DNA of 64,000 nt, taken from the NCBI GenBank assembly GCA_963844965.1, contig CAWJQC010000004.1, positions 1 through 64,000 on the forward strand. Direction: 5' to 3'. The translations under genes were made by a program, and so were the position numbers. A model generated the notes under the pieces. The model saw only the letters and a list, made by a program, of their open reading frames with translations. It ran no database searches and was not told where the DNA came from. Position 1 is the stretch's first letter, and each line of letters starts with the position of its first letter. Below, piece after piece: positions 1 through 19,418 of this stretch. The DNA is from an uncultured bacterium (GTDB lineage: Bacteria > Patescibacteriota > Minisyncoccia > UBA6257 > 2-01-FULL-56-20).

Positions 1-3000
1 TATAGGCGGCGGCAGCAAAAGCTGCCAGTCCGCTCGGCAGTGAATTCGGATTTGTCGTCCACGCGCCGGTGCTGGAGGTGTTGATTTGGGCATAGAGAAC
101 CGTATGGTGCCTCCGTTACCGTTGCCTGTATTTGCGGTGCCGCCGAGATTGTAGATATAGCCATTCCAGACGACAGCCGAGTTGTACTCCAGCGCCGTAG
201 GCAGGAATTGGGATTTTTATACCACGTGCCGGTGCTTGAAGCGTTTATCTGAGCATAAAACACTGGAGGTGTTAACGCCGACTCCATTATCCTCGCCTCC
301 GATTGAATATATGTATCCGTTATAGGCAACGGCAGCCGTGTTATAAATAAGTGAAGCGGGCATATTGTTCGGATTCGTTTTCCACACGCCTATGGTGCCA
401 TTGGAGTTTATCGGAGCATAGTAAACATTATTGGTGTCCCCACCTAACGTATAAATATATCCGTTGTAAACGACGGCGGAGTAATGATTAAGCGCAACGG
501 GCAGCGAATTTGGTCGTCTGCCACGCCTGCACGATTGGCGACGCGTTGATGTGCGACGGAATCGTATTGAAACCGCTCACGGTCGCCGAGGAATCACTCA
601 ACTGCTGTTCCGCTCCGCCGAATGTGAAGGAAGAAGTCGCGTAATGCTGGGAACTCGTTGCCAGGAAATGTCCCAAACCGTCACTGAAGGCGGTACCGGA
701 TATGGCGAGGGTTGTTGAGGAATTGCCGGCGTTGCTCACATAGTGGATTTGGTTCGTGGAGCTGGTGTTCTGGCCGACGAGGAGCGTGCCGTAGGTTGAG
801 GACGCGGGCGAAACGTTAAAGCCCGTGAGGACGACAACGTCCACGTTGGAGGAAGTTGAGTTAGTGACACTGGATGTCGCACCCTCCTTGTCCACCGCCA
901 CGGCGTAAGCCACCCAATCCTGCGTGGGATAACTTGAGGTCGGCGATTGGCTGCCCGTGGAATCGGCGAAGTAGTAAAGTGCAACGGTATCGGTTTCGTT
1001 GTAATTCGTGCCGCTCACACAGGAACCAGTGGAAGAGACGACTCCGAGGTAGCACCAGCGGTTGTCGGTCGTGGGATTGGCTGTTTCACAAGTGGAAGAA
1101 GCGCCGGTGCGGAAAGCGGTGGAAGTAACGTGATAAATGTCCGTGTAGCCGTTCAGGTCCTGCACTGTGTAGTTTATCGTGAAGGTCGTCGTGGCGTTCA
1201 CGGTCAAGTTCAGATTGCTGTTGTTGTTAAGTTTCACAGCGGAGATAGTCGGTGTGTAATTGTGGTAAACATTCAACGCGATGCATGAAGTATATAGTCC
1301 GATGTCCTCTACGGTTGAAGTAGCGTGCCTCCGGTGCTCTTGCCGCCGACCATGTAGAGATAACCGTTCGCGATAGCAACCCTGCTGGTAGAGAGGAAGA
1401 GGCGTTGACGAGGCGGTGAGCCAGCTTGAGAGAGTGCCCGTGCCCTGATACCAGTACGTGCCCGTGGGAGTAGTTAATTGTTGGGCATAAAGAACGGTCG
1501 TGGTCACCCCTCCGTAGGCGGCGGTTGACGAACCGCCGGTAACGTAAATGAAGTTGTTGTAGCCCTCAACGTCCGGCTGGATGATGGGGGCGGGAAGTGC
1601 CGTGGCGGTCGTCCAGGAAGCGACCGAGCCGTCGGAGTTGAGATAGGCCATGTTCACGGTGGTCGTAATCGAGGAAAGCGAAGTGCCGGTGCTGCCTCCT
1701 ATGTTATAGATGACGTTATTGAGGATGGTTCCGTTCTGTTTTGTCATGGCAGCCGGAAGGCCTGGGTTGAGCTCCAGTTGGCTATGGTTCCCGTGGAACT
1801 TATGAGACCGTAGAGAACGGAAGTTGTGGCATTGCTCGTGTCATCGCCGCCTACGACATAGACATAGCCGGTATTAGGGTTAACTCCCGCGAAAGCGTTG
1901 TTGCGGTTTGCGGGAAGCTGGGCGGAGACGCTCGTGCTCCAGGAGCGAGAGTGCCGTTTGAGGCGATGGTTGACTGCGCGACCTGCGTGCTCGCCGCGCT
2001 TACCGTAGTTCCGCCGCCCACGACGTACATTATGGTAGTGCCGCCGGAGTTCGTGTAAGCGAAGGCCTGGTGCTGGACGCTGGCGGAGGGAAGCGCGGTC
2101 GTATTCCCTGAGCCGGTAGTTGTCCCGTTTGAGCCGACCGAGAAGTAACTCACTGTCGTCGTGCCGTTCGTACCGTCCGATGTTCCGCCTATGGAATAAA
2201 GATAGTTGTTGGAGAAGACGGCCTGGTTCAGGGAAATGGAGGTTGAAACCGCTCCCTGGGTCACCCAGCCCTCGGCGGCGGTCATACCCTGCTGGTTTAT
2301 CTGGGAGTAGAAAACTGTGGTCGTGGCGACGCTTATAGTACTCGTTCCTCCGGTCGTGTATATATAACCATTGGAGACAACCGCGGAGAGTTCGTCAAGT
2401 GGGCTCGGAAGAGCGGTGGCGGCGGTGCTCCAGGAGCCGACCGTGCCACTCGCCTGAAGCGGGGCATAGAAAATTGTGGTAGTAGCGCTGGAAATTGTGC
2501 TGCTTCCTCCCACCGTGTAGATGTATCCGTTATAGGCGACCGCGGAGTGCAGCATAAGCGGGCTCGGCAAGGAATTGGAGTTCAAGCTCCATGTTCCCAC
2601 CGTGCCGCTCTGATTTATCTTGGCGAAGAAAACGGAAGTGGTGGGGACGCCGGAAGTGGTCGTGGCTCGCCAGTCGTATAGATGTATCCGTTATAGGCGA
2701 CGGCGGAATGGAACATAAGCGGGCTCGGCAAGGAATTGGAATTCAGTGTCCACGTTCCTACGGTGCCACTGGAGTTTATCTGGGCGTAGAAAACAGAGGT
2801 GGTGGCGGGAGCGCCGGCGGCCGTGTTCGTGGCACCGCCGATCGCATAAAGATAACCGTTATAGGCGACAGCGGAAAGTTCGTTAAGAGGGCTAGACAAG
2901 GAACTGGAATTCAGGGTCCACGTTCCCACGGTGCCGTCCTGATTTATCTTGGCGAAGAAAACGGAAGTGGTGGCAGGAACGTTGGCGGCCGTGGTCGTGG

Positions 3001-6000
3001 CGCCGCCAATCGTATAGATGTATCCGTTATAGGCGACCGCGGAATGGTTGGCGATACCGCTCAGAAGTTTATTGGAGTTCGTAGACCACGCTCCCACCGC
3101 GCCGTTGGAACTTATCTGTGCATAGAAAACGGAGGAAGTAGCCGGAGTTGTGGCGGGAGCGCCGGTGGTTGATGTGGCTCCTCCCGTCGTGTAGATGTAG
3201 CCGTTGTAGACGACGGCGGAATGCCCGTAAAGAGCCGCAGTTGCGGGCAGGGAGGCCGCGTTCGTCGCCCACGTGTTGTCCACGCGCGTGAGGGTGCTTG
3301 AGCCATATAGGCCCGAGTTGTCGGGGTCATAGGCCTGCGCGCCCCACCAGTATGTGCCGGCTGTCAAGGTGTACTGAAAAATGCCGCTTGTTCCCGTCGC
3401 CGAAGTGGCGGAATAGGCCGTGCTGTTACTGGAACCGGAGGAAGCGTTCTGCCCGCTCCAGTTGGTCTGGCTTGAGGGCTCGGTGCTTGAAGTTACAACA
3501 TCCGTACACGCCTCGTTCTGGTAGAGAACCCACTTGTACTGCACGTACTGGTTAGAGGTTGATGTCAAAGTCGCCGTCATTTTGAATGTCGTGGAAGCGG
3601 TGTCAACTGTCGTCGTCGCGGCCACCGGAAAATTCAGTATCGGCCGCCGCGGCTGCGGCAGGGAAAGCGAAAGCGCGGGGTAGACGTTGTAAGAGTCAAA
3701 CGCAACAAAGCTCGCGCTCGTTGCCTCCTGAAGCCGGAAGTAGTAGGTTCCGTTGTTACCGTAGACATCCTGCGGACCAGCGCGGATGGCGTATTCCACT
3801 TCCGTCCAGGTAGAGGTCGGACTGCTGTAGGAAAAACCTATATTGACGAGTCCCGTCGTGCTTGAGGACTGCTTTATTTGGCCGGAAGTGGAAGCATTGG
3901 CGTCCGCGGTAAGCTGGGCGGTCGTGGAAGCGCCATCCGTAAAATTCGTTGAGGAGGCGATAAGGAAAAGTTGGCTGGAAAAAGTGGAGGTTGTGGGGAC
4001 CAGTGTCCAGGAACCGGAAGTCGCGTTGTATTGGTACTGAAGCTGGAGTTTGGGCTGGGTCGTTGTGGCGCGGGTGTTCGTAACCTCAATGCGCAGACGG
4101 TAAACGTTGGCCGTTGAGGTTGCGCTGCCCGTAGCGTTCTCCGCCGCCGTCTGCCAGACGGAGCTGGTTTCCGAGCCGGTATCGTTCCGCCAGCGGTAGC
4201 GCGTCTGCGTAAGATTGGGGGCGGCAGTGTAGGTAATGACGATGATACCCTTTGTGCCGTTGCCGCCGGCATTGGCTCTTCCTCCTCCTCCTCCGGCGGC
4301 GCCGGTAGGCGCCGCCGTTACTACCTGCCACGTTGCTGTTCGCTCCTCCTCCTCCTCCTCCGGCGCCGCCCGTCTCGTTGTTATTGGGAGAGGTTGCCGT
4401 CCAGTCCGTGTGCGTGCCGCCGACGCTTCCCGCCGCTCCTCCGAGCGCGCCGCAACCGCCGTTTCCGCCACGGCTGCTGGGGGTTGAACTCCCGACGCCG
4501 CAGTAGCTGGCAGCGCCTCCGCCCCCGCCGCCGACTGAAGTGGCGTTTGATCCGGCGCCACCGCCGTATAATATACTTCCGATGGAGCTTATTGTCGCTC
4601 CTCCCGCGCCTCCGGCTCTTTTGCTGTCGGTAGTGCTTGCCGCGCCGAATCCTCCCGCAGCGCACATCGAGGCACCGGTGCCTCCGCATGTCGTAGTGCT
4701 TACAGAAGCGCCGAACATCGTAGCGGTGCCGGTAGTCGCTGGCGTGGTGGAAGCGCCCAAGCCAACGTCGCCTACCTTAATACTTACGGAGGAACCGGCG
4801 ACGAGAGAGGTGCTGCCGTTTGCTATTTCAGCGTAGGCGGCGCCGCCTCCTCCTGCGCCGTAGCGGCCGCTACTAGCGCTTGTTGCTTTGGAGGCGCCGC
4901 CGCCGCCGCCGATGCCCTCAATCGTGTTTGAAGCAAGGTTCCAGTCGGCGGGCACTATCCAGCTCGTAACGGCGGTAGAGGTCACAAAAACGACCGTGTT
5001 CGCCGTGCCGGCGTCCGCCGCTATCTGCCACTGCCTCGTTTCTATAGGACTTATAAGACCTATAGGACTTATAGGAGCCGCGGTGAGCGGGCCCAGGAGA
5101 TAGAACTCCGGGCTCACGTTCGGCGCCTGGAATTCGTACCAAAGCGTGTGACTCTCGCCGGCCCGCCAGTTGACCTGCCAGGAAATATTTTGCGTGTCCG
5201 AACCGCAATTCACGAGACAAGTACTGCCGGACACGAGTACCCGTGACCTGCGACAGAAAACCGTTATCCTGCGATGCGTTGCCCGTTCCTTGCGTAGTGC
5301 CATCCATTCCCTGTTCCGCAACCTGGAAACCTTTCGGGACGGTTTCCGTGACCGTTCCGGAGAAATCCGACTGCGCGGCCGCCTTGATCTCCATCCTGTA
5401 GAACGCGGGCGGGTAAATTCTCGTGCGACCGATACGCTCCACGTTCCACAGCGGCGAATCCTCAACCGTGAAGCTGTCGCTCGTCGTTCGTTCGCCGTTC
5501 GCCGTCGTCGCCGTGAGCGTTACATTATAAGTGCCGGTCGCGTCCGGCTTGAAGGTCGCGTAGTAGTCGGGGGCGTTGGTGACGGTGGACGCGCCGCACT
5601 CGGAACTGCGCGTGATGGTGCCGTCTTCGGTGCTCATGACCGCGACGCCTCCGCTTGGCAGACCTGCCTGCGCAGGCAGGCTTATCGTGATATCGGCCTC
5701 GGCGTCGCAAATCGTGTGCCCCATGTCGTCCAAAACCGAAAATCCGATTCCCGCCTCGTCGCCGTCGCTCAAACTGTAAACCGTTTTATTGAAATTCAGA
5801 GCGATGACGCCCCAACTGAAGTCGCTCTGCGAGACATATACAGTGCCGTCCTTGACTATGAAAACCTTCACGGTGTAGCGGCCGGGGCGGAAGGAACTCC
5901 TTTTCGGGAAAGTGAACGTCAAACTGCTTCCGTTTTCCGTTGCCGAAGGCGAAATGTCCGGCATGAAATTCCCGTCCGGGCCGAAAACCTGAATGGCGTA

Positions 6001-6213
6001 GGGCGGAGCGGCACGGGCATGGGACACACCACACGCAACATGTAGCATGCAACATGTAACACCAGATAAAAAGAGGAAGGCAAAAAAGGCAGCAGCAAAA
6101 AATAACAAGAAATATGGGTGATACCGCCGGCTATTTTGAAGTTGAGAGGGAGTCATTTTGCCATATACCGCAAAACCAGCGGGACGAACAACCGCTTGTT
6201 CTAATTTTAACAC
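1..6213 (-). CDS. Giant secreted or cell-surface protein (about 2000 aa if contiguous) with N-terminal signal/TM, Ig/fibronectin-like beta domains, a Gly-rich segment and many Kelch-like beta-propeller repeats (motif AVAYNGYIYTxGG); broken into five or more frames (ORFs 4918..6213, 4086..5465, 2615..4561, 1851..2600, 488..1747, unlisted repeats in 1..487); runs off the left edge
   Basis: Consecutive minus-strand ORFs whose real parts abut; frame switches near 5230, 4330, 2670, 1800, 1350 and 480; repeats YNGYIYTIGG/SAVAYNGY in every piece; at 2670 one repeat unit is 1 nt shorter than its neighbours. Confidence 0.6.
2450..3250 (-). repeat. About 160-bp tandem coding repeats (5 units) encoding Kelch-like blades inside the giant surface-protein gene
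   Basis: Near-identical DNA units ...gtatagatgtatccgttataggcgac... recurring every ~160 bp. Confidence 0.8.
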
Positions 6214-6285
6214 ATATAAAACTGACCGACTTATTAACAGAGGCCGTTCGCGAGTTAACGAGTTGCGAGTTAACGAGTTGGCCGG

Positions 6286-6675
6286 CTACTTTTTTAAAAA
6301 TTGCCTGCTTATTCTTTTCCCCTCCAGATAAACTATAAAACTGCCTGTTTGATTGGCTAAATCCTCAAGTTTGCCGTTAATCCGGCTGAATTGCGCGCCG
6401 GAAATATAACCGACGGCTAACGCAACGTGAAGTTGGTTCCTTGTTTCGCCCACAGAACCCTTGGCGATTTTTAGGTAACGGATAAATTCATTGTTGTTGT
6501 TCTTTTCAAAACCCTCGGCAATATTGGAACTGATGGAGATAACGGCTCTTCTTATCTGATCGCGCAGACAAAAATCCCTGGAAAATTCTTTCTGGCTGGT
6601 CAAATCGTAAATTTCCTTCGTTATTTCCAAACTCAACTTCCAAATATTCAAATCCTCAAATTTAGTTATTCTCAT
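6286..6675 (-). CDS. Four-helix bundle protein (PF05635/TIGR02436, the 23S rRNA intervening-sequence protein family)
   Basis: 129 aa; typical ...ISISSNIAEGF..., ...KGSVGETRNQL... motifs; flanked by inverted CGAGTTAACGAG repeats (6251-6278 and 6688-6711). Confidence 0.8.
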   Translation of the reverse strand: MRITKFEDLNIWKLSLEITKEIYDLTSQKEFSRDFCLRDQIRRAVISISSNIAEGFEKNNNNEFIRYLKIAKGSVGETRNQLHVALAVGYISGAQFSRINGKLEDLANQTGSFIVYLEGKRISRQFLKK

Positions 6676-6725
6676 GAGTTGAATTAAACTCGTTAACCCG
6701 TTAACTCGTTAATTTATTAATGCAC

Positions 6726-6980
6726 CTATGGTAACTTATTCAAATCAATCTTAATGACCGGCTCCTCGTTTGACCTGTAGTCGGTTTTCGTTGGCGCCAT
6801 CGCACCGCTTGATGAAGAAACCTGGACCTGCGGCAGGTTGGGGAAGGGGTTGGGAGCGGAATACGGTGCCGTGGTCCCACCCGCCCCGCCGGATCTCTGC
6901 TCACTCACCATCGCCAAGTGGATGAGCACAAGCAGGATTATCACGGCGGCGAAAATCAAAATTATTTCTTTTGTCCGCAT
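6726..6980 (-). CDS. Small membrane-anchored protein (85 aa); its C-terminus is paralogous to a segment of the upstream 664-aa surface protein
   Basis: Internal Met of ORF 6726..7169; TM IILIFAAVIILLVLI; APNPFPNLPQ...EEPVIKIDLNKLP resembles NAPNPFPGLPQ...EEPTINIDIGDLP in ORF 7039..9033. Confidence 0.4.
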   Translation of the reverse strand: MRTKEIILIFAAVIILLVLIHLAMVSEQRSGGAGGTTAPYSAPNPFPNLPQVQVSSSSGAMAPTKTDYRSNEEPVIKIDLNKLP

Positions 6981-7038
6981 TGCTAAATTAGATCGATGAA
7001 CGAGAGGCAAAAAATGCCAATTGCCGATTCCCAATAAT

Positions 7039-9033
7039 CTATGGCGACGTTGACGATGCGCCGGCCGCTGAAGATGTATCTGTTGTTGAGGGTACGTCTG
7101 TCGTTGATGATACGTCTGTTGTTGGAGATGCGTCCCCCGTTGAAGACGCAGGTGTCGCAGAAGATACATCTGAAGAACTCGCCGACTCCCCAGTTGAAGA
7201 CACGACGGAAGAACTTGCCGGTTCCTCCGTCGAAGACGCGACGGAGGAACTTGCCGGTTCGGCGGCTTGGGCTTCGTCGTTCACGAAGACGGCCGGTTCG
7301 TTTGACGTTGACGATCCCGACCCGCTCGGCGTTGACGACTCGTTTGATGTTTGCTGCGCCGCGGAAATGCCGGCTGTTGACGTTTGCGTTTCGTAATCCG
7401 TAGACGACTGCTGCCCGGCGTAGGGTCCGGTCCCGCTTCCGCTAACGTTACCCAAGATGCTGCTCGCGACGGATATCGCGGACGGCAACAACGAGTCCCA
7501 AGTCGTTGACGGCAGATCGCCTATGTCTATGTTAATCGTCGGCTCTTCCCCGCCGCCCCAGTACTTTTTCTGGACATTGAGGCCGCTGCCCTCGGGCAAA
7601 GCCGACTGGGGCAGACCGGGAAAAGGATTGGGAGCGTTATTAAAGGACGGCTCGGCTGACCCGGCGGCGGGCGTGGAACTCCCGTTACTTATGGGATACA
7701 GAAATTGCAAATCCGGAGATGCCGTCGCCTCATAGTGGACCTCCATAAGTATTCCGTCCAGATACACGCGCGGCGGCTGTATGGTCGTCGGGATTGACTC
7801 TACCCTTACCTGAATTTTTTCAAGATCGTCCCAGTCCCCCACGGGCAACGAAACGGTAAGATTTCTCCAGTTATCTTCGTTCACCATCGCGAGTTCCGCC
7901 CATGTTTGGCCGTCGGTGCTGTAACTTATTTTCAGAAAATTTTCGTCCGGTGGTGCCGGCTCCACCACGGGCAAGGTGCTTGTAACCAAGGTACCGCTCG
8001 CGATCTCGGGCGTGCCGCTCGCCTCCTCGGTCCCCGTCGCAACCGGTCCGAGTTCAGCACTGAGCGGCGGGCCGATAATCACGGTCTCCGAGGCCTCTGT
8101 TGTTGAAGTCGTCTCTTGCGCCGCTTCCGTGCTTGAAGGATTCGCTCCCGAAACGGAGTTTACGGGTGATTCCGTTCCGCTTCCGGCTGTGCTGCTTGAG
8201 ATATCTTCCGACGAGGCGGGCGCCGCTTGCGATCCGGAATCTCCGTTAGAGCCAGCGGACGCTGAATCCGGCGCTGCTTCCGAGGCAGAAGAATTATCCG
8301 AAGATGCGTCGGAAGATTCTTGGGCGAAAGCGGGACTGATAAAAACGTAGCGCAGGTTCCCGAACCAAAAGGATTGCGTCGTTGATTGTCCCTCTGTGCC
8401 GCTCGGGGCAGGCATGACCGGCACGGTTTGTTCGGTTGACGACGCACCTCCGCCGGCAGGCGAAACAGGTTCTGGCGTGGTTGAAGATGGTACTATCGGA
8501 TTCACGGTCGGAGCCGCAGCGGGCACTTGTCCCTCGGCGCCGCTCGGGGCAGGCGCCACTTCCGCAGCGCTAAACTCCATCTGCCAGACAAAAGTTAGTC
8601 CGACGCCATTTATTTCCCCGCCGGCTTTATAATCCGGCGGGACAAAACCGCCGCAATATATCTGACCGCTCACGGACGGCGCGAGGATCGCGGAGTTGCT
8701 AGCATCAAAAACCGCCGGAGCGCCGACCGAAACCAGATTCTCCGGTTCATCCTGGGCATTTGACGGATTTTGCCATATGCCAAGACAGGTTGAAGGATAA
8801 AAATCGGCTACCTCGGCGCGCGTGGAAATATTCCGCACAAAGAAAAGTAAAGCAACGGCAAATATCACAAGGACAGCCGCCCAAAAAGGGTATCGTTTAT
8901 AAAAGGCCGGCTTCAGATTCACCGTCTGACCGTGATTTCCCAACCATCCGAGCGGCTTCAATCCTTCGCCGTGCGGCGTTGATTTAACATCCAAAAACCG
9001 CCTCTCGTGTTTTTTCCCGTTTGAGGCATTCAT
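7039..9033 (-). CDS. Ser/Thr/Ala/Pro-rich low-complexity surface protein with N-terminal TM anchor
   Basis: 664-aa ORF; TM FWAAVLVIFAVALLFFV near the N-terminus; long S/T/P/A-rich tracts. Confidence 0.55.
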   Translation of the reverse strand: MNASNGKKHERRFLDVKSTPHGEGLKPLGWLGNHGQTVNLKPAFYKRYPFWAAVLVIFAVALLFFVRNISTRAEVADFYPSTCLGIWQNPSNAQDEPENLVSVGAPAVFDASNSAILAPSVSGQIYCGGFVPPDYKAGGEINGVGLTFVWQMEFSAAEVAPAPSGAEGQVPAAAPTVNPIVPSSTTPEPVSPAGGGASSTEQTVPVMPAPSGTEGQSTTQSFWFGNLRYVFISPAFAQESSDASSDNSSASEAAPDSASAGSNGDSGSQAAPASSEDISSSTAGSGTESPVNSVSGANPSSTEAAQETTSTTEASETVIIGPPLSAELGPVATGTEEASGTPEIASGTLVTSTLPVVEPAPPDENFLKISYSTDGQTWAELAMVNEDNWRNLTVSLPVGDWDDLEKIQVRVESIPTTIQPPRVYLDGILMEVHYEATASPDLQFLYPISNGSSTPAAGSAEPSFNNAPNPFPGLPQSALPEGSGLNVQKKYWGGGEEPTINIDIGDLPSTTWDSLLPSAISVASSILGNVSGSGTGPYAGQQSSTDYETQTSTAGISAAQQTSNESSTPSGSGSSTSNEPAVFVNDEAQAAEPASSSVASSTEEPASSSVVSSTGESASSSDVSSATPASSTGDASPTTDVSSTTDVPSTTDTSSAAGASSTSP

Positions 9034-9146
9034 CCCGTTAGAAGCAGGTCGCTGTCAACGCCTGCATCATTATATTTATATTTAAAGTTAATTTTTCTGT
9101 CCCGTCATGTGCCGTACCGTAACGCGACCGCGGCTTCTAACGGGAT
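9032..9146. repeat. Inverted-repeat element of the ATCCCGTTAGA(A/G)(G/A)C family (copy A); about 115 bp, no ORF; right arm abuts the ATG of gene 7039..9033
   Basis: atcccgttagaagc at 9032-9045 and gcttctaacgggat at 9133-9146, with an extended imperfect stem (aggtcgc/gcgacc). Confidence 0.7.
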
Positions 9147-9312
9147 TCATCACCCTTATTTTAACATTATTGCCGCAAAAAATTGTCCCCTCCTCTGGGG
9201 ATTAACGAAAACGGCCGGTTAGCGAATTGGTGTATTAACGAATTAACGTATTAACGAATTGTTTTTAATGCGTTAATTCGTTAATCCGTTAATTAACAAT
9301 AATCCGATAAAA

Positions 9313-9881
9313 CTAGAGTTTTTTGTACTCAATAATTATCTCCTGTTTATCTTTCAGGACCAGATTCTCATATTCGGTGCTAGGTTTGCCGTCAACGGTC
9401 ATCGTGAGTTCATGATCGGCGTCGCGATAATAATCCATTATCCAGTCCTTGGAAAATCTCTCGCCCCAGACGGCGAAGAAATCCCCCAACGTGAACGGCG
9501 TATTATCATAGGGCTCTACGTCAATCGTTCCGCTCGCGTCGTCCGTGTGGATTATCCGCTCGCAATCCGCGGTGAGGCCAATGCCGGCCGGTATCGTGAC
9601 GCTCTTGCCGTTAACGATGATCGCGAGATGCGGATAGATGCGGTATTGCTGCGGAGGCGGATTCAAGAAACTCGCGCATGGCACTTCGTGGATGGCAGAG
9701 ACAGCCGTATTAGAGCTTGAAGCGGCGTTCGGCGTGCTGCTTTCTTCGGTCTCTACGGAAGGAGCCGTGCCGAAACTGGCATGCGCGAAAGTCCGCCCAA
9801 CCCCATGACCACGGTGAGACCCATGATGACCACGAGAACTATTGTGAGCGTTCTTTTGCCGCTGCCGCTTTTCTTTTTCAT
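9313..9881 (-). CDS. Hypothetical protein with N-terminal TM segment (MKKKSGSGKRTLTIVLVVIMGLTVV...); frame-shifted about 80 codons in
   Basis: ATG at 9881 overlaps the GIY-YIG stop as ATGA; downstream ORF 9313..9684 is in another frame. Confidence 0.4.
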
Positions 9882-10135
9882 CCCGTTAGAGACAGGAAAC
9901 GCTTTAACCTATTCTTGAGGTAGCGCTTACCCATGCCAGACTTTAAATATTTTTCTCTCGACTTTGCATCTTCCTCATTAAGACATGCTTCGTAATATAT
10001 CAGACGATACGGTCCATTATAGCTGGTATATTTCGATTTCCTTGCATTGTGGTCATTAAAGCGTTTCCGTAAATCCGAGGTATATCCTGTGTACCAACGT
10101 CTATTCTTATTTTCTAATACGTATACGTAGTACAT
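9878..10135 (-). CDS. GIY-YIG nuclease family protein (85 aa)
   Basis: N-terminal YYVYVLEN...RWYTGYTSDLRKRFNDHN is a GIY-YIG motif; gene lies between inverted repeats atcccgttagagac (9880-9893) and gtctctaacgggat (10146-10159). Confidence 0.8.
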   Translation of the reverse strand: MYYVYVLENKNRRWYTGYTSDLRKRFNDHNARKSKYTSYNGPYRLIYYEACLNEEDAKSREKYLKSGMGKRYLKNRLKRFLSLTG

Positions 10136-10199
10136 GAAATGGGTGGTCTCTAACGGGATTCATTGCAAATAAAAAAACTGACCATTATAATTATTTCGT

Positions 10200-10640
10200 A
10201 TTCTATAACATAATCGCAAGCGGGTCTAATAACACCTTGCCAGGTCGCCTGCCTGCCGGTTTACCCGCCGAAGGAGGACAGGCAGGTCTAACGGCCCACG
10301 CACCAAAACAAAGTTTGGTACGGGGTAAATAGGACATCGGCCGGCGCGAAGTCCCGCATAAAGCTGCGGGGTCGTCTAACTTGCCCCGCCGCACTTTAAA
10401 AAATCAAAAATAAATTTCTTGCCAGTGCTGCCGGGTCGTCTAATGGTAGGACATCGGCCTTTGGAGCCGAGTATCTTGGTCCGACTCCAAGCCCGGCAGC
10501 ACTGGCCGGAAAAGTGCGGCGGGGTGAAGTAGGACACGGGCCTTTGGAGCCCGGTATGAAGGTTCGATTCCTTCCCCCTCAGCACGAGCCACCGCAGTAT
10601 AATCCGACCCTACTCGCCATAGGTCGAGGAAGGCCGGATA
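10200..10640 (+). repeat. Cluster of tRNA-like repeats and pseudo-tRNAs; GTAGGACA(T/C)(C/G)GGCC occurs three times, gtcgtctaa twice, plus a P1/P2 palindrome
   Basis: Recurrent tRNA D-arm and anticodon-arm-like segments; only one unit folds into a complete cloverleaf. Confidence 0.5.
10429..10499 (+). tRNA. tRNA-Gln (anticodon TTG), no encoded CCA
   Basis: Acceptor tgccggg/cccggca, 3-bp D stem gtc/gac, anticodon stem tcggc/gccga with loop ctttgga, T arm cttgg-tccgact-ccaag; unusual C55 in the T loop. Confidence 0.5.
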
Positions 10641-10648
10641 GAAAAATT

Positions 10649-11176
10649 TCAAAATTCTAACGTGAACTTCGCCCGTTCCCCTTTCTTGAACGGGTGTTTT
10701 ATTTCTTTCATTTCGGTCACCAAATCGGCCGCGCCAATAAATTCACGCGGCGCGTTGCGGCCGGTCAAAATCAAAATTTTACCTTCCGGAAAACTTTTTA
10801 TGGCGCGCAATACCCGCTCCGCGGAAAGCAACCCCAATTTCACCGCAACATTTATTTCGTCCAGGACCATCAAATGCCACTTGCCGCTTTTCAATTCCTT
10901 CGCAAAATATTTGAGCGCTTTCTCCGCGGCTTCAGCGTGTTTCTTCTTCGGCAGTTTATCGCCAAGTATTCCCACGAACCCCAAACCCATTTTCTTGATT
11001 GAAAATTGAAAATTGAAAATTGAAAATTTTTCCGCGAATTCATCTTCGCCCGACCGCCACGGCCCCTTGATGAATTGGATCATGAGCGCCGATTTTCCGC
11101 GCCCCAAAACCCGCACCATCTGCCCCAAAGCCGCGGTCGTTTTCCCTTTTCCGTTTCCCGTGAAAACTATTATCAT
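10649..11176 (-). CDS. btuR: Cob(I)yrinic acid a,c-diamide / cob(I)alamin adenosyltransferase (CobO/BtuR family)
   Basis: MIIVFTGNGKGKTTAALG...IQFIKG P-loop typical of CobA/BtuR; the CDS contains a gaaaatt x4 microsatellite (FSIFNFQFS). Confidence 0.7.
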   Translation of the reverse strand: MIIVFTGNGKGKTTAALGQMVRVLGRGKSALMIQFIKGPWRSGEDEFAEKFSIFNFQFSIKKMGLGFVGILGDKLPKKKHAEAAEKALKYFAKELKSGKWHLMVLDEINVAVKLGLLSAERVLRAIKSFPEGKILILTGRNAPREFIGAADLVTEMKEIKHPFKKGERAKFTLEF

Positions 11177-11185
11177 TTCTGTCGG

Positions 11186-11258
11186 GCCGCTGGGAATCGA
11201 ACCCAGTCTTTATCCGCCAAAGGCGGACAGGCGCACCCTCACCCCCACACCGATTGTA
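11186..11258 (-). ncRNA. tRNA-like 3' portion (anticodon arm with TTT, T arm ctggg-ttcgatt-cccag, acceptor 3' strand cggcccg) directly downstream of tRNA-Pro
   Basis: Lacks its own 5' acceptor; the complementary cgggccg lies at 11399-11405 on the far side of tRNA-Pro. Confidence 0.5.
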
Positions 11259-11263
11259 ATTTG

Positions 11264-11334
11264 TCGGGGAGCCGGGAATCGAACCCGGTCTTCACGCACC
11301 CGAAGCGCGCGTACTGCCGGTATACTACTCCCCG
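11264..11334 (-). tRNA. tRNA-Pro (anticodon CGG)
   Basis: Acceptor cggggag/ctccccg, D arm gtat-accggca-gtac, anticodon stem cgcgc/gcgtg with loop ttcgggt, T arm ccggg-ttcgatt-cccgg. Confidence 0.75.
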
Positions 11335-11405
11335 GTAAATTGGTGTGGGGGCGTGGCGCACGCCTGTCCGCCTCCGGCGGATACTACCGGTATACTACGG
11401 CCCGT
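11335..11405 (-). ncRNA. tRNA-like 5' fragment (acceptor cgggccg plus D arm tagtataccggtagta, nearly identical to the tRNA-Pro 5' half), followed by a tccgcc-ggag-ggcgga hairpin and an inverted-repeat arm caggcg...cccccacacc
   Basis: No T arm; its 3' tail is complementary to the head of the 11186-11258 fragment (ggtgtggggg...cgcctg). Confidence 0.5.
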
Positions 11406-11457
11406 TGTGTCTTTAGCTTACAGTAAACGACTTATCTGGTAAAGAATGCGGAAGGGA

Positions 11458-11889
11458 CTATGCCGTCCCCGTACTGCCGAACCCCCCGCGGGTTTTCTTG
11501 CCCATTTTTTCCACTTCTTTCCAGTCGGCTCTCGCGAATTGCACGAACATCCCCTGCGTTACGCGTTCGCCTTTTTCTATTACCACCGGCTTGTCCGTGA
11601 AATTGTAGTATGCCGACCTGAACTCATCCTCGTCGCCGCAAAAGTCGGGGTCAACGATGCCTACGCCATTCGCGAGCATCAGTCCCTTTTTATAAGTTGA
11701 GCTCCGTGCAGCCAAAAGTATAAAATGTCCGGCGGGCGCCTCTATCGCGACGTTCAGCGGCACAAAACGGATTTCCTTCGGCGGAATTTCCACGGCCTCG
11801 CGCGCGCACAGATCAAAGCAAGCCGCGCCATCCGTCTTATGCGCCGGCAGAGGCAAATCTTTATTAAACCGCCTTATTTTGACCAGCAT
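11458..11889 (-). CDS. dut: dUTP diphosphatase
   Basis: 143 aa; C-terminal GGFGSTG; dUTPase motifs. Confidence 0.85.
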   Translation of the reverse strand: MLVKIRRFNKDLPLPAHKTDGAACFDLCAREAVEIPPKEIRFVPLNVAIEAPAGHFILLAARSSTYKKGLMLANGVGIVDPDFCGDEDEFRSAYYNFTDKPVVIEKGERVTQGMFVQFARADWKEVEKMGKKTRGGFGSTGTA

Positions 11890-11892
11890 TTT

Positions 11893-12294
11893 TTAGCCGA
11901 TTTTTCTCTTCGTTTTTTCCCGATGCAAACGCTTTGACTTTTGCGTCAAAGCGAAAACGGACAAAACCATAATGTAATCGGCTACGACTTCCGAAGAAAC
12001 CTTGTAAGCCGAACCCAGAAAAAATGAGGCGATGATGAGCGCGAAGATGACGACGGTCCAAAGAAGCACAAAAACTTCGCCGGGATGGCGGCTTTCGTGA
12101 ATATCGTACCACCTGTCAAATTCCTTTGTTCCGGCGTAGAGGCCCAAGACGCCCACATAAACCACGCTAAAAGGCGCGATGAGATACCCATAGGCATCAG
12201 CCGCGAAAAAATTTATCACTACGAAAACAATAAAAACCATCGTCCAAAAATTCACGATGTTGCGCAAAATTTTTTCGTTATGAAACAGGTCCAT
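11893..12294 (-). CDS. Hypothetical integral membrane protein (3-4 TM)
   Basis: 133-aa ORF with hydrophobic helices. Confidence 0.45.
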   Translation of the reverse strand: MDLFHNEKILRNIVNFWTMVFIVFVVINFFAADAYGYLIAPFSVVYVGVLGLYAGTKEFDRWYDIHESRHPGEVFVLLWTVVIFALIIASFFLGSAYKVSSEVVADYIMVLSVFALTQKSKRLHREKTKRKIG

Positions 12295-12486
12295 TACTTT
12301 ATATGATACTTTTCTTTCATCTCCTCTTCAACAACCACGCCCTCCCGCTCGGCAAATGCCGAGCGAGGCTCGCCCACTATCGTGGGCGGCAAACTCCATT
12401 ACTGAACATGATACTTATCTTTTATTTCTTGCTCAATCCCTGTTTCAAACTCCTCTTTGGCTCCCTTGGCTTTTTCGGAAAGTTTT

Positions 12487-14040
12487 TTAAGCTCCGCGTC
12501 CGGCATTTTCCCTAACTCCTTGATCCTTTTCTTCCAGCTTCTCTTTTATGTTTCGCTTCGGGTCGTCCAGAACTTCTTCAAGTAAAACCGACAAGATGAA
12601 CCCCACTCGCGGGCCGGGCGGAATGTCCAAAATCTTCATCACGTCGTCGCCTTTAACTTTGAGCATCTTCGGCGAGATCGGGTCGTGCTTCACTTTTTCT
12701 ATCATGAACAAAAGATGGCGCAGCTTATATGGGAAAGCTTTCGGGACGCCGGAACCGATGCGGTCGGCCTCGCGCACTTTGAGCAAGTCGGGAACGTTCT
12801 CCGGGCCGACGCGCGCCAAAAACCTCCGTACGCCTGCTTCCGTCACTTCTCCCACGTTGTAGTAGAAAAGATGGTAGCGCACGAGGTGCACGACTTTTTC
12901 CGCGAAATCCTTTGAGAAACGCAGGCGGTCCAGAGCTTTCGCCGCCATTTTCGCGCCGATATATTCATGCTGATAAAAAGTTGAGTCGGGCCCCTCGCCT
13001 CTTTTTGACTTGGGCTTGCCGAGGTCGTGCAAAAGCGAAGCCAGCCGCACTTCAAGCGAATAATTTTGCTTTACGGCGTAATCAAGCGCGCGGATGTTGT
13101 GCTCAAAAACCGAATAGATGTGATGCTTGTTCTGGCCGACGCCGAGCCCCTCCCGCAGTTCCGGCAGGACATACTGGAGCAAATTCAATTCTTCCAAAAG
13201 CAGAATTCCCTGCGCGGCGCGCGGCGCCATTATTATCTTCTCAAACTCGTCGCGGATCCGCTCTTTGGCGACGGCGTCCAGCAGCGGGCTCAGTTTTTCT
13301 ATCGCGCGGCGCGTTCCCAAATCGATCTGCCAGCCAGAGGCTGGTCCGCCTCCGGCGGAAAAATCAACCCCTCGACTTTGCTCGGGGTTGGCTCGTTCAT
13401 CGAACGAGCCAAGTTCCACGGCGAACCGCACGGCGCGCATGAGACGGAGCGCGTCTTCGTTGAATCGCTCTTCCGGCAGGCCCACGGTGCGGATAATTTT
13501 ATCTTTCAAATCTTTCCGGCCGTCGTACGGATCAATGATTCCCCCAGCTGTCCACCTGACAAGACCCATTGCGATCGCGTTTATCGTAAAATCGCGCCGC
13601 GACAGGTCTTCGTCAATCGTTTTCGCGAAGGTGATGTAATCGGGATGCCGCTTGTCGGTATATTTCCCCTCTTCCCGGAAGGTCGTCACCTCTACCACTC
13701 TTGTGGTCGCAGATACTCGCGGACTTAACGCCGAATCACGCTGAAAACTTTCTGCGTTATTCTGCGTACTGTCTGCGTCCTTCCGCGGTGCGAGTTTAAC
13801 GAGCACAGTGCCGAAATCGTTCTCGTAAACCGTTGACGGATTTTCCGGCGTGCCGCCGTGGAAATTCAGAAACAATTCCTGCACTTTATCGGGCGTCGCG
13901 TTAGTCGCCACATCCCAATCTTTCGGTTCCCGCCCGAGCAAAAGGTCACGCACGCAGCCGCCGACAAGATAGGCCTCGTAACCCTTTTCGCCAAGCAACG
14001 CGCCGATTCTCTTTTACTTCTCCGGGAATGTCGTGTTTCG
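12487..14040 (-). CDS. cca: CCA-adding tRNA nucleotidyltransferase with C-terminal HD domain; N-terminus disrupted by a 1-nt indel in an AAAA run near 13995
   Basis: GYEAYLVGGCVRDLLLGREPKDWDVAT; upstream frame MERKTKHDIPGEVK continues the canonical N-terminus; carries an in-frame palindromic insertion (FSAGGGPASGWQ) at 13331-13368. Confidence 0.85.
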
Positions 14041-14158
14041 TTTTCCTTTCCATTACCCATACTTTACCGGAAAATTTTAAATTGGACAAACTCCCCCCAA
14101 TATACTATATTGTGGCTAGCAACATCTGCGTAGTTTAACGCCAACAAAAGGAGGACGT

Positions 14159-14485
14159 ATGGCAGTAACTTATATGAAAGTAGACGACGGCTTTTATGTA
14201 AGGGTGGATGGCCAGCTTTTTACCCACCTGCGAAAAGGCGATGGATTCGTAGATGACCCCAACGTCAAGTTCAGAGAAACGGTCCTTGTAGTTTCTGCCG
14301 CGGATCTCATTGAAATCGCCATAAAGGCGGACGAAGTGAAGCAATATGGCGCGGAAATACCGACATGCCAATCCTGCAAGGGAACGCCGAATTTTCCAGG
14401 GGAAGTCTGTAATCCAAATGAGGGCATGCAGCAATGCTGTAGTCCTTTCCATCCATTCAATATCAGGAACTTCGGCCGGCCGTAG
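14159..14485 (+). CDS. Hypothetical protein with Cys-rich C-terminus (CQSCKG...CNPNEGMQQCC)
   Basis: 108-aa ORF with strong RBS aaaaggaggacgtATG. Confidence 0.5.
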   Translation: MAVTYMKVDDGFYVRVDGQLFTHLRKGDGFVDDPNVKFRETVLVVSAADLIEIAIKADEVKQYGAEIPTCQSCKGTPNFPGEVCNPNEGMQQCCSPFHPFNIRNFGRP

Positions 14486-14580
14486 ACCATAAACGACAAG
14501 TTCAATCCCCCGCCACCGGCAGCGCGCCACGCTCGCCGGCTTTTGTTTTTTTGCTTGATCTGCAAACCAAACCTCAACTC

Positions 14581-15267
14581 TCAGCGGGATTCCGTGTGAT
14601 CGCGGACCTTGTTAATGAGATGCGCCGCGTATTCACGCCCGCCCAAACCGAAGGCCAGTCCGCCGGCAATCGCCACCATGGCAATGAAGCCGGTGATAAC
14701 GGTATTAATGACGCTCGCGGCGATATTCAACTGCACGAGAGCCGTCAAAAATCCGAACACAACCACAGACCACCACGTAAGCGTCCCCAAGAGATGCGCG
14801 GCGTGCAGGCGGGCGCTCATCACGGATGCCATCACGAGCTTCCTCAAGAAACCGGCTACGACGAGCGACGCAAGTATAACGATGACCGCCACTATCACGT
14901 TGGGTATGTACGCCAGCACGCTTTCTCTCAGAAACGTGGAGAGAGCGGTGAGCTGCAGAATATCTGACGCGGCAAGAAGAAAAGCCACAACGATAAACCA
15001 GTAAACCAGCTTGCCGAGGAAGTGAGCGCCGCGCAAGCGAAGGCCGGCTCTCTCAAAATAAGGAGCAAGTCCCAGCTTCGCCAAAGCGGCGTCCAGCTTT
15101 ATCGCGTCAAACAATTTCTCAACGAGCGTGCCCAAACCGGCGGCGACCACCAAGCCGATTATAAGAACGATCAGAGCTCCGATAAGATTGGGAACAAAAC
15201 CTATAAAACCATACCAGAGGTTCTGCAAAGAAGTTGCAACCACGTCCGTCCAACTTTGAACAACCAT
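14581..15267 (-). CDS. Membrane protein with repeated TM-helix modules (PF05552-like, as in MscS-associated proteins)
   Basis: 228 aa; four similar hydrophobic segments (LIGALIVLIIGLVVA..., FIVVAFLLAAS..., IVAVIVILASLVVAG..., VVVFGFLTALVQL...). Confidence 0.5.
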   Translation of the reverse strand: MVVQSWTDVVATSLQNLWYGFIGFVPNLIGALIVLIIGLVVAAGLGTLVEKLFDAIKLDAALAKLGLAPYFERAGLRLRGAHFLGKLVYWFIVVAFLLAASDILQLTALSTFLRESVLAYIPNVIVAVIVILASLVVAGFLRKLVMASVMSARLHAAHLLGTLTWWSVVVFGFLTALVQLNIAASVINTVITGFIAMVAIAGGLAFGLGGREYAAHLINKVRDHTESR

Positions 15268-15279
15268 GTGTTAAGGGAA

Positions 15280-15545
15280 AATTTATGGAACGTACTTCGA
15301 CCTTTGCCCGGTAGTAGAACTTCGAACAGGACAGTTCTGCCGCCAATGTGTAGTTATAAAACAAAGCGTCACCAGTGCAATTGCCAGCAAAACAACCGCA
15401 CAACCCCCATTCGAAGTCTTCACTACCGGGTTTGCTGTCGTGTCTCGCTCTTGCGAGCCACGATTCGTACCTCACAAAAGTGAGGCACGAGGAACTTTTA
15501 TTAATTATAGCAAGGCTTATTAACTTTTGCACAACCCCCCCTCCA
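15280..15545 (-). promoter_or_regulatory. Structured 250-nt leader upstream of the TM-helix protein gene with a candidate sigma70 promoter (TTGTGC-17-TATAAT, read on the minus strand at about 15510-15540); possible riboswitch or ncRNA
   Basis: Several hairpins (cctcac-tttt-gtgagg, ctcgc-aaga-gcgag); no credible ORF. Confidence 0.3.
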
Positions 15546-15600
15546 TCACGCTCCAGGGCTGGTTAAAACCGCATCTGCACAATATCCTCATTTTTTACTG

Positions 15601-15680
15601 TGGACCCGCCGGGAATTGAACCGGGACCACTGCCTACCGGCAGGCAGGTCAGCAACTCCGCACATAAACTTGTCATAACC
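15601..15680 (-). ncRNA. Non-canonical tRNA-like element: encoded CCA and a T-arm-like segment joined to a P1 palindrome (ctgcctaccggcaggcag) in place of a normal D/anticodon region
   Basis: tggacccgccgggaattgaaccggg is the reverse complement of a tRNA 3' end; no full cloverleaf can be drawn. Confidence 0.35.
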
Positions 15681-15694
15681 CGGTCGCTTAAAAA

Positions 15695-16123
15695 TCACTT
15701 AATTAAAGCGAGGGAGAGCAATACTGCCGCTAAGGAAAGAATGATTAACCCGGAAAAAAATATATAATCAGCAACGTTCTCATAAAGATTAGATCTGCGT
15801 TCAGAAGCCGCGCGCATTGACATGAAGGAGAACAGGCTGCTTACGCAGAATAAAAGAATCTCCGCAGTTGCAATTTTGTCAATTATAGTTATGTTCGGCA
15901 GACCAAGAACCCTGACGGTGGTAAGTACTATGAACGAAAAACCTACCAGGTTTGATGAGGCATTCAATATGTGGGGTGAATTATTATTGTTGTCGTTGTT
16001 GGTAGACATGAGTAGATATAAATAGTTTATAGTGGATTTTGGTGGACCTAGGCGGAATCTCCCGATATTTCTCCCGACTTTAGTCGCGGATGAAATATCG
16101 CGGATACTCGATTTTGTAATCAA
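15695..16123 (-). CDS. Hypothetical small membrane protein (likely start at the internal Met, MSTNNDNNNN)
   Basis: ORF with two or three TM helices. Confidence 0.4.
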   Translation of the reverse strand: MITKSSIRDISSATKVGRNIGRFRLGPPKSTINYLYLLMSTNNDNNNNSPHILNASSNLVGFSFIVLTTVRVLGLPNITIIDKIATAEILLFCVSSLFSFMSMRAASERRSNLYENVADYIFFSGLIILSLAAVLLSLALIK

Positions 16124-16180
16124 ATCGGAGATTTGAACAAAATCGGGAGAACCGCCGCCTCGTCAATGTCCCGATAGCTG

Positions 16181-16254
16181 TGGTGGACCCACCGGGAATT
16201 GAACCCGGACCTCGGCAATGCGAATGCCGCGTAATGCCGTTTTACTATGGGCCC
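16181..16254 (-). tRNA. tRNA-Ala (anticodon CGC), CCA encoded
   Basis: Acceptor gggccca/tgggtcc (one G-U pair), D arm gtaa-aacggca-ttac, anticodon cggca-ttcgcat-tgccg, T arm ccggg-ttcaatt-cccgg. Confidence 0.8.
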
Positions 16255-16299
16255 GTCTCGTGAAAAATTGTAGAACGTTTGAGAATAAACCGCAAACAA

Positions 16300-17115
16300 C
16301 TACTTCTTCAAGATATCCCAGATAAAGATCACGATTTCAATAACAATCAATATGATAACAACCCACTCAAGGAAGTGCGCTTTTTGCGCGGTGATAAAGT
16401 TCAAAAGTGTGGTATTGTTCTCCGACAAGAAATCTATTTTCTCGTTCAGGATGTCAAAGCGGTCGCGGAGCTCGTACTCGTCACGCAATCTGTCGTAAAG
16501 TTTTTCTATCTCTTCGCGCTCCCACGTTTCGTTGGGCTTATCAAATAAGGACAGGCTGGACACCGCGTTCTGCTTAACCGACAGAACATTTCCAACTTGT
16601 TTGAGAAGGTTTGATTGCGTAGTGCGCGTGCGGCCGGAACTTTTCAGATTTTCCACGATCTTGCCAAGCTCATCAAGCCGCTCGTCTATCTCGTTTTCAT
16701 ATCTGTCCAACGCCACTGACTGCGCCGAGACATAAGAAATGATCTTTATCTTTTCCAGATCCAGACCTCTGATGTAAAGTTCTTCAAACGTGGCTTTCTC
16801 ATTGTAGGAAGTTCCGACATGGACAACAAGCGTGTCCGCGTAATCGTACCTTTCCCGCCGGCTTTTCACGAACGGCATTATTTCCCTCGCGAACTCGCTC
16901 GCCAAATTTTTCTTTACGTTCCAAAAAGTAACCGTGCCGAATTTCGTGAGCACGGCGTACTCGCCCTCCAGAAGCTGGACCACAAGCGGGTGGTCGCGGT
17001 TCATAAAATGGTACTTCTTCACGCCCTCCTGCAGATGCTTCAGATCCAACTGCTCGCCAAGGTAGCGGGTCTCAACAAAATACTTTGAAGTTTTTTCTTT
17101 GCGTCTGCTGGGCAT
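16300..17115 (-). CDS. DUF155 / RMD1-family protein with C-terminal TM helix
   Basis: 271 aa; family-like architecture with terminal TM VVIILIVIEIVIFIW. Confidence 0.55.
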   Translation of the reverse strand: MPSRRKEKTSKYFVETRYLGEQLDLKHLQEGVKKYHFMNRDHPLVVQLLEGEYAVLTKFGTVTFWNVKKNLASEFAREIMPFVKSRRERYDYADTLVVHVGTSYNEKATFEELYIRGLDLEKIKIISYVSAQSVALDRYENEIDERLDELGKIVENLKSSGRTRTTQSNLLKQVGNVLSVKQNAVSSLSLFDKPNETWEREEIEKLYDRLRDEYELRDRFDILNEKIDFLSENNTTLLNFITAQKAHFLEWVVIILIVIEIVIFIWDILKK

Positions 17116-17181
17116 TTTACCGGTTACTTACTTTCCCACCCTAACATAAAATTGCCTTGCCGGCAAAGTCAGAATCAGCAA

Positions 17182-19416: not shown

Positions 19417-19418
19417 TC

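Follow-up and report, generated by a model that had tools for sequence, protein, structure and literature searches.

The gene studied here lies at positions 6286 to 6675 of a 64,000-nucleotide stretch of DNA from an uncultured bacterium of the Patescibacteriota (contig CAWJQC010000004.1; the whole stretch is referred to below as the window). It encodes a four-helix-bundle protein of the PF05635 (TIGR02436) family and is bracketed by inverted arrays of 8-nt tandem repeats. This layout has the same anatomy as the PF05635-bearing intervening sequences (IVSs) of 23S rRNA genes, and comparison of homologous loci showed that it is a family-wide signature of PF05635 genes, with lineage-specific units of 7-8 nt. 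With moderate confidence, we favor the interpretation that the gene and its arms form an IVS-type cassette, which would be co-transcribed with its host genes and freed by RNase III cleavage of the duplex formed by the arms, the arrays possibly providing, in addition, sites for the encoded pentamer.

A PF05635 gene between inverted arrays

The components of the cassette are as follows.

6286..6675, minus strand: PF05635 / TIGR02436 four-helix-bundle gene, 129 residues (profile hidden Markov model)
6713..6722, minus strand: outer AT-rich segment, CATTAATAAA on the gene strand, outside the upstream array (sequence)
6689..6712, minus strand: upstream arm, three tandem 8-nt units, TTAACGAG TTAACGGG TTAACGAG on the gene strand (repeat counts)
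6250..6279, minus strand: downstream arm, AACTCGTTAA CTCGCAA CTCGTTAA CTCGC on the gene strand (complementarity and fold)

The 129-residue open reading frame (ORF) matched the profiles of PF05635 (E = 1.9e-32; 112.1 bits for a cut-off of 33.8) and TIGR02436 (E = 1.3e-30; 105.8 bits for a cut-off of 24). Since both scores are far above the cut-offs, the PF05635 gene proposed in an initial annotation of the window is genuine. Its location outside any rRNA, also proposed in that annotation, is borne out by the absence of a large subunit (LSU) rRNA match in the window and by the protein-coding nature of the ORFs on both sides. The cassette occupies an intergenic spacer, in the same orientation as the neighboring genes. 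The G+C content of the gene is 0.39, compared to 0.53 ± 0.04 for the long ORFs of the window. More than 1400 relatives of the protein were retrieved; the best 120 displayed 67-77% identity and originated mostly from metagenome-assembled genomes (MAGs) of Patescibacteria. The nearest solved structures, PDB 2GSC (E = 1.2e-13) and 2RLD, were each deposited with five chains, and a PF05635-type protein has been stated to be a pentamer (PMC4990558). By homology to 2GSC and 2RLD, the window protein is predicted to form a ring-shaped homopentamer. Comparison with the PADLOC defence models returned no match.

On the gene strand, the cassette consists of CATTAATAAA, three units, a spacer of 13 nt, the ATG codon and the remainder of the ORF, the TAG stop codon, the hexanucleotide CCGGCC, and the inverse units. 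The spacer (6676-6688) contains no Shine-Dalgarno-like motif. The downstream arm, which starts 6 nt past the stop codon, is the inverse of the upstream units, one of its units being 7 nt long. The cassette thus described has a size of approximately 470 bp, with about three units per arm and the unit consensus TTAACGRG, the ORF lying exactly within one long, imperfect palindrome.

Allowing one mismatch at most, GAGTTAACGAG was found at four sites in the 64 kb (expected number, 0.94), all of them at the flanks of the gene (6252 and 6267 on the plus strand; 6689 and 6697 on the minus strand), and none of 100 shuffled sequences contained four sites. At the same stringency, TTAACGRRTTAACG was found at six sites (0.14 expected), two in 6691-6712 and four in 9235-9292. 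The bare hexamer TTAACG was at background in the window, with 18 and 17 sites per strand for about 15 expected, and nonetheless clustered only at the flanks of the gene and at 9235-9292. The initial annotation had named a background frequency of the motif as an observation that would count against its proposal; the longer repeats are in excess, and the inverted repeats that it described on both sides of the gene are present in numbers above the shuffled expectation. The two arms are 84-93% complementary across 14-19 nt. In RNA folding of the minus strand of 6235-6730, both the minimum free energy (MFE) and the centroid structures paired 6250-6279 with 6689-6712 (z = -3.0).

PF05635 is a family resembling Avd (PMC10053308), and the possibility that the window protein is the Avd accessory protein of a diversity-generating retroelement was considered. 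The two proteins belong to the same structural family, Avd being a pentameric barrel that binds an RNA stem-loop. However, no reverse transcriptase was detected in the flanking ORFs or among the ORFs of at least 250 residues within 20 kb, and no pair of template and variable repeats was detected, the direct repeats of at least 50 nt in 1-20000 being Kelch repeats and two tRNA-like copies. The RNA site of Avd is, moreover, a single stem-loop and not a series of tandem units. For lack of a reverse transcriptase and of a template/variable repeat pair, this candidate was rejected for the locus, barring a reverse transcriptase that acts from another part of the genome, and we hold it to be extremely unlikely.

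Recurrence of the bracketed layout

To define the layout in relatives of the gene, 70 homologous loci were taken from species-representative genomes. Throughout the analysis, the selection of loci relied on homology or on the array pattern, ORF calling was mechanical, and the taxon labels of MAGs are those deposited. Nearly every homologous locus contains two to four (mostly three) TTAACGNG units ending 2-10 nt before the ATG codon, and inverse units that begin at, or overlap, the stop codon. The array abuts the ATG codon in 44 of 67 loci, three units being the commonest number. Some lineages harbor 7-nt units, TTACGNA or TTGCGNA, in place of TTAACGNG, and in many loci an outer pair, TTATTTATTATTTAG / CTAAATAATAAATAA, lengthens the palindrome. 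The absence of repeats around other copies of the gene, which would have spoken against the initial proposal, was not observed, since arrays flank most of the 70 loci. The strict tandem-array detector was blind to arrays of two units or of degenerate units, and the figures that it returned (61% and 50%) are therefore lower bounds.

A flank complementarity of at least 12 was observed for 61% of 59 intact homologous loci and for 5.8% of 381 control ORFs. An iterative profile search of the small ORFs in all loci provided 92 PF05635-like ORFs; following addition of seven plasmid copies and omission of ORFs with too little flanking sequence, the resulting set of 96 reached this threshold in 69% of the cases, versus 7% for 1064 other ORFs. 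Only a few controls scored high; these turned out to be further PF05635 paralogues, with units of another kind, one small GIY-YIG gene, and RAYT-like genes accompanied by hairpins of the repetitive extragenic palindromic (REP) type. The arm complementarity score was 18.05 for arms of the same locus, whereas permutation of the arms gave 13.69 ± 0.47. Fifteen or more end-to-end pairs were present in the MFE structures of 64% of 58 cassettes (median of 24 pairs), as opposed to 10% with displaced flanks. Divergent paralogues were each bracketed by inverted arrays of another 7-8-nt unit (for example, GTACAGNG, ACAAGTNG, AAATCCGAA, AAAAGNN, or CACAAAT). The cassette was co-oriented with both neighboring genes at 41 loci and antisense to both at two.

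The same layout was found in cultured bacteria. A tblastn search of a plasmid collection returned 32 records, mostly from Nostocales. The Nostoc copies were bracketed by the heptamers GGGGAAA/TTTCCCC or GAGTCAG/CTGACTC, the Picosynechococcus copy by GGAGATA/TATCTCC, and the copy of a Riemerella plasmid by GGTTCAAG/CTTGAACC. Plasmids of Pseudanabaena galeata (L206) and Picosynechococcus (L207) contain PF05635 genes that interrupt CRISPR-Cas operons, in the orders cas6-[gene]-cas4 and cmr2-[gene]-cmr3. In Xanthomonas, the orthologue of the crystallized protein XCC0516 (PDB 2GSC) splits the conserved accB-accC pair (positions 1424-1900 of L209 and L211, from X. citri and X. campestris). It is flanked by GGGAATC GGGAGTG GAGAATG GGGAATC on one side and by inverse units on the other. 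The downstream array runs straight into the accC start codon, without a Shine-Dalgarno sequence.

A copy of the gene in Azospirillum lipoferum 4B, which is not annotated, was located inside a 23S rRNA gene (Rfam LSU positions 868-1655); it is a true IVS, closed by a long stem and containing GGACAGA/GGACGGA heptamers in inverted arrays. The Coxiella IVS has been reported to contain three tandem heptamers (GACAGAT x3) abutting the ATG codon, a 28-bp terminal stem, and a poor Shine-Dalgarno sequence, and RNase III cuts have been mapped in its stem at the first repeat (PMC4990558). With the PF05635-bearing 23S IVSs of Leptospira, Coxiella, Brucella, and Azospirillum, the window cassette shares the location of the ORF in the loop of a long stem of terminal inverted repeats, the short tandem repeats upstream from the start codon (13 nt from the ATG codon in the window), and a weak or absent Shine-Dalgarno sequence. 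It differs from them by its location between protein-coding genes, rather than in helix 45 or 25 of 23S rRNA, and by the length of the units, which is 8 nt instead of 7. RNase III cleavage of the stem is known from the IVSs that have been studied and would apply to the window cassette by analogy.

Together, the recurrence of the layout at homologous loci, around divergent paralogues, in cultured bacteria, and in 23S IVSs, as well as the outer boundaries shared by two copies in one MAG (see below), strongly supports the initial view of the gene and the palindromes on its two sides as a single cassette. The arms could otherwise be ordinary intergenic hairpins, such as terminators, or chance palindromes beside a small gene. 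Hairpins are common after genes, and several are present in the window. This explanation is very unlikely in view of repeat counts far over the shuffled expectation, of arms that do not resemble the terminator pattern, and of the recurrence of the layout across phyla. In addition, the gene-less hairpin described in the next section has a separate canonical terminator behind it. Neither a consensus promoter nor a consensus terminator was found at the window cassette, and reading the arms as such signals was rejected; chance or ordinary hairpins are refuted by the comparative data.

Gene-less arrays and related repeats

The initial annotation had reported a second nest of repeats at 9215-9300. 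It is real and corresponds to a hairpin of the same unit family that contains no gene.

9233..9294, no strand assigned: gene-less hairpin, TTAACGAA TTAACGTA TTAACGAA, 12-nt loop, GCGTTAAT TCGTTAAT CCGTTAAT (fold and repeat counts)

Three units (9235-9258) are followed by the loop and by three inverted units (9271-9292), and the segment 9235-9292 folds at -30.5 kcal/mol (z = -4.7). The hairpin is located between the stop codon of the ORF 9313-9684 (minus strand) and a canonical terminator-like site at 9201-9186 (minus strand). Since it precedes this separate site, it is 3'-untranslated region (UTR) material and not itself a terminator.

In other genomes, gene-less versions were found near gene-bearing ones; locus L005 contains one bare hairpin and one hairpin with an AT-rich filler of 100 nt. 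Metagenome contigs, when scanned in an unbiased manner for three TTAACGRG units in tandem, yielded at least 120 stretches, with 134 arrays among the matches listed. Of these arrays, about 13 lie next to a close homologue of the gene, gene-less hairpins or versions with a short filler account for at least 17, and many of the remaining arrays adjoin arrays of other units.

Arrays of three families, TTAACG, GTACAG, and ACAAGT, occupy many intergenic spacers in contigs of the metagenome Ga0265297 (L086, L098, L104, L113, L119, L137, and L141), which we infer to belong to one population. They often form one-sided composite modules in the fixed order G>T>A> or its inverse. For each of the three families, there is also a PF05635 paralogue of its own, bracketed by its units. 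At least nine copies were found of a composite palindromic element measuring about 270 nt (L087, L099, L126, L135, L151, two in L186, and two in L194), with the order GACAGCGCCAGTTGAG, (TTAACGNG)3-4, AATTGAAATAACTAACAA..., GGTTTAGGGTT..., CCCTAAACC..., CATTAACGACTGGCGATGTC. A larger non-coding repeat has thus taken up the TTAACG array as one of its modules.

Other short repeats are present in the window. Three further gene-less intergenic hairpins consist of the tandem heptamers TAGAAAN / NTTTCTA (20118-20191, 56121-56216, and 59762-59838), which also occur at 49518-49539; their folding energies lie between -21 and -50 kcal/mol. The window contains no PF05635 gene cognate to these units. Four copies of ATTTTCA (gene strand) at 10998-11028 are located inside an ORF for an adenosyltransferase of the CobA/BtuR type (10649-11176, minus strand) and encode ...FSIFNFQFSI.... 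A second type of cassette is defined by the 11-mer TCTAACGGGAT, with six exact sites in the window (0.94 expected) arranged as three inverted pairs. The pair 9880-9890 / 10149-10159 brackets an 85-residue GIY-YIG ORF (9878-10135, minus strand; G+C of 0.38). The pairs 9032-9042 / 9136-9146 and 61400-61410 / 61515-61525 contain no gene, enclose about 95-105 bp, and measure about 115-125 bp from end to end. Inverted repeats likewise flank a GIY-YIG gene in L048 (4893-5150).

Possible RNA processing, mobility, and recognition of the units

According to the IVS-type interpretation, the cassette would be transcribed together with its host genes and its two arms would pair as an RNA duplex of 24-40 bp closing off the ORF. 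The duplex would be cut by RNase III, as was experimentally established for the IVSs of Coxiella, Leptospira, and Salmonella. Cleavage would render the insertion tolerable inside an operon or an rRNA and would free the RNA of the ORF, nearly leaderless and devoid of a Shine-Dalgarno sequence. More speculatively, the arrays may double as candidate binding sites of the encoded ring-shaped pentamer, each subunit reading one unit or one periodic mismatch. The Avd pentamer binds an imperfect RNA stem-loop by all five protomers, flipped-out bases being held between protomers (bioRxiv 10.1101/2023.10.23.563531); this mode of binding is a precedent, not evidence for the window protein. Binding by the pentamer could result in autoregulation, and it would account for the presence of a distinct unit family around each paralogue.

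Several observations weigh against this interpretation. Because no promoter-like site was found for the cassette, co-transcription was deduced from orientation only. Constraint on a sense-strand RNA stem alone should result in an excess of G·U over A·C mismatches. This excess was not seen, since the arms contained 89 G·U and 91 A·C mismatches, indicating the absence of an RNA-specific wobble bias. The six core bases of the units were paired in 80-98% of the cases. Position 7 was a purine in both arms and was paired in 39% of the cases, which is exactly the value expected for independent arms. The constraint therefore applies to the sequence of each unit (TTAACGRR) and not to pairing. Such a pattern resembles a stem less than it does a recognition motif in which one position is free. 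At the RNA level, position 7 would be Watson-Crick paired, wobble paired, or mismatched (A·C), leading to a duplex with periodic irregularities. The lack of a G·U bias and the unconstrained position 7 speak against a model based purely on an RNA stem. Around the Pseudanabaena copy, the long arrays (AAAAGCT)n and (AAAAGCC)n are direct rather than inverted. Finally, many of the metagenome arrays among the matches listed are one-sided or fused to arrays of other units, and are unable to form hairpins alone.

A mobile element acting at the DNA level is a rather unlikely alternative, in which the arrays would be terminal inverted repeats containing several binding sites, much as many transposons have in their subterminal repeats, and the RNA hairpin would be a by-product. 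The cassette and its gene-less derivatives, comparable to transposable elements of the miniature inverted-repeat type (MITEs), would be mobilized by a factor acting in trans or by the PF05635 protein itself. The arms of the cassette are terminal inverted repeats, as in transposons and MITEs. Two copies in one MAG (L005 and L008) share discrete boundaries, their homology being bounded exactly by the outer palindrome TTATTTATTATTTAG ... CTAAATAATAA. The arms and outer AT-rich segments of these copies are 98-100% identical; the coding sequences are 89% identical, with 0.055 nonsynonymous (dN) and 0.55 synonymous (dS) substitutions per site. The dN/dS ratio of about 0.1 indicates that the protein is under purifying selection, which, together with the near-identity of the arms, also counts in favor of the IVS-type interpretation. 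No conserved neighborhood was found, the neighboring genes being unrelated from locus to locus. Relative to a pair of syntenic genes, X-Y, the cassette occupies different junctions, being upstream of X at L019 and between X and Y at L049. The interruption of operons (cas6/cas4, cmr2/cmr3, and accB/accC), the low G+C content, and the existence of gene-less versions are also in favor of a DNA element, as is a constraint on the units that is alike in both arms regardless of pairing, without a G·U bias.

Other results do not fit this alternative. No transposase or recombinase was found in or next to the cassette, whose sole ORF encodes PF05635, a family without known catalytic activity. Target-site duplications were not consistent: AGATAAA is a possible duplication at L005, where a chance match is conceivable as the flanks are AT-rich, and none was seen at L008. 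Comparison of contigs carrying an identical protein revealed no pair of filled and empty alleles, and no relatives were found on viral contigs, leaving phage carriage unsupported. Identical proteins in different contexts were rejected as a sign of recent mobility, since the contigs carrying P0051 represent one locus with strain variation and are uninformative.

The initial annotation had suggested a mobile or IVS-derived cassette. The cassette itself is strongly supported. We infer its mobility from unrelated neighbors, the shifted position in the syntenic pair, low G+C content, and gene-less versions; this support is indirect, with neither a consistent target-site duplication nor an empty site nor a transposase. 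Derivation from an IVS did not emerge from the comparison: the identity of the window protein is only about 30% with the Azospirillum IVS copy, as opposed to 70-75% with hundreds of free-standing Patescibacteria copies, and the 70 homologous loci include none that lies in an rRNA gene or carries 23S signature motifs. With this low identity and no rRNA-borne locus among the 70, a single type of cassette appears to have two habitats, one in IVSs and one free-standing.

The protein and the repeats might also form a regulon that is not selfish, in which the PF05635 pentamer would be a host regulator or an RNA chaperone, the intergenic tandem arrays would be its operators, and its own gene would be autoregulated. 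We consider this explanation improbable. Each paralogue is bracketed by its own unit family, as illustrated by three unit families with three bracketed paralogues in a single metagenome. The unit combines a conserved 6-nt core and a free position, as do the sites of ring-shaped RNA binders. The arrays extend to the start codon, there being no Shine-Dalgarno sequence, the arms are better conserved than synonymous sites, and Avd grips its RNA stem-loop with all five protomers. In Xanthomonas, the PF05635 gene lies between two of about 186 GGGAATC arrays (PMC4692102). However, binding by free-standing PF05635 proteins is hypothetical, and joint inheritance of the gene and its arms would yield the match between paralogues and units without any binding. 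The positions inside rRNA and essential operons look selfish, not regulatory.

TRAP is a ring-shaped oligomer that reads tandem (G/U)AG repeats with variable spacers near a start codon. The comparison with the window cassette is an analogy only, since the folds are unrelated and binding at the cassette is hypothetical. Like REP/RAYT systems and MITEs such as Correia elements, the cassette combines dispersed intergenic palindromes with a gene bracketed by repeats, and RAYT-like genes with REP-type hairpins are present in the same set of loci (L014 and L020). In contrast to these systems, PF05635 is no transposase, the arms consist of tandem arrays instead of single palindromes, and no consistent target-site duplication was seen.

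We know of no function assigned since the 1990s to the PF05635-type genes of 23S IVSs, and of no explanation for the heptamer arrays that are abundant in cyanobacteria and Xanthomonas, namely the short tandemly repeated repetitive (STRR) sequences and the GGGAATC arrays. The STRR and the GGGAATC / GGGGAYT arrays of Xanthomonas and Nostoc are likewise intergenic, consist of few units with a core and variable positions, and often occur as convergent pairs able to form stem-loops (PMC4692102). The Xanthomonas PF05635 gene is bracketed by exactly GGGAATC-type units, and the Nostoc copies by heptamer arrays. The window cassette differs from the STRR by units of 8 nt (with one 7-nt unit downstream), not tandem 7-nt units, and by a host genome of the Patescibacteria type. 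In X. campestris, 186 arrays of the GGGAATC family have been described, mostly with four units and many in convergent pairs (Rehm et al. 2015, PMC4692102). Rehm et al. found no function for the heptamer arrays; PF05635 proteins are absent from their article, in which the terms 'S23', 'four helix', and 'intervening' have no occurrence (PMC4692102).

We tentatively propose that PF05635 proteins and short tandem arrays of 7-8-nt units (STRR heptamers, GGGAATC, and TTAACGRG) may constitute one widespread two-part system. Each pentamer would recognize its own unit family, the gene would always reside within a hairpin built from that family, and arrays without a gene, located between genes, in 3' UTRs, and in rRNA, would be the other targets of the pentamer. 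If this is correct, the system would be a partnership of the RAYT/REP or TRAP type, and would account both for the 'S23p' IVS proteins, orphan since 1993, and for the heptamer arrays, orphan since 1990. The PF05635 gene and the arrays go together across at least five phyla; whether in rRNA, in operons, or in spacers, the gene nearly always lies within a hairpin composed of the array family of its own genome. These two orphan observations are thereby brought into one testable hypothesis, that of a cassette processed by RNase III and possibly bound by its own product. A tractable model for this purpose is the accB-[gene]-accC locus of Xanthomonas, the structure of the protein being solved.

PF05635 ORFs are already known to lie in stem-loops that RNase III cuts. 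What appears to be new is the free-standing habitat in Patescibacteria-type genomes with 8-nt units, the gene-less hairpins of the same TTAACGRG units, and the general rule tying the PF05635 family to families of short tandem arrays, including the heptamers of Xanthomonas and Nostoc. No article linking PF05635 proteins to short tandem arrays was found in full-text searches, the coverage of which is incomplete, so that a prior description is possible.

The initial annotation had also pointed to IVSs in the 16S rRNA gene of the window. This gene (31985-34074, minus strand; 2090 nt) carries one insertion only, about 500 nt long and located in the region of helices 17/18, near model position 457. 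The insertion contains no PF05635 ORF, no long conserved ORF, and no tandem arrays, and a link between the cassette and the insertion was rejected on the basis of the missing PF05635 ORF and arrays. Between 2.6 and 6.2 kb, the G+C content is 0.55-0.68 and several long ORFs overlap on both strands, so that gene calls in this region are uncertain. The Kelch-type repeats mentioned above form five tandem copies of about 160 nt at 2347-3224, inside the ORF 2615-4561 (minus strand).

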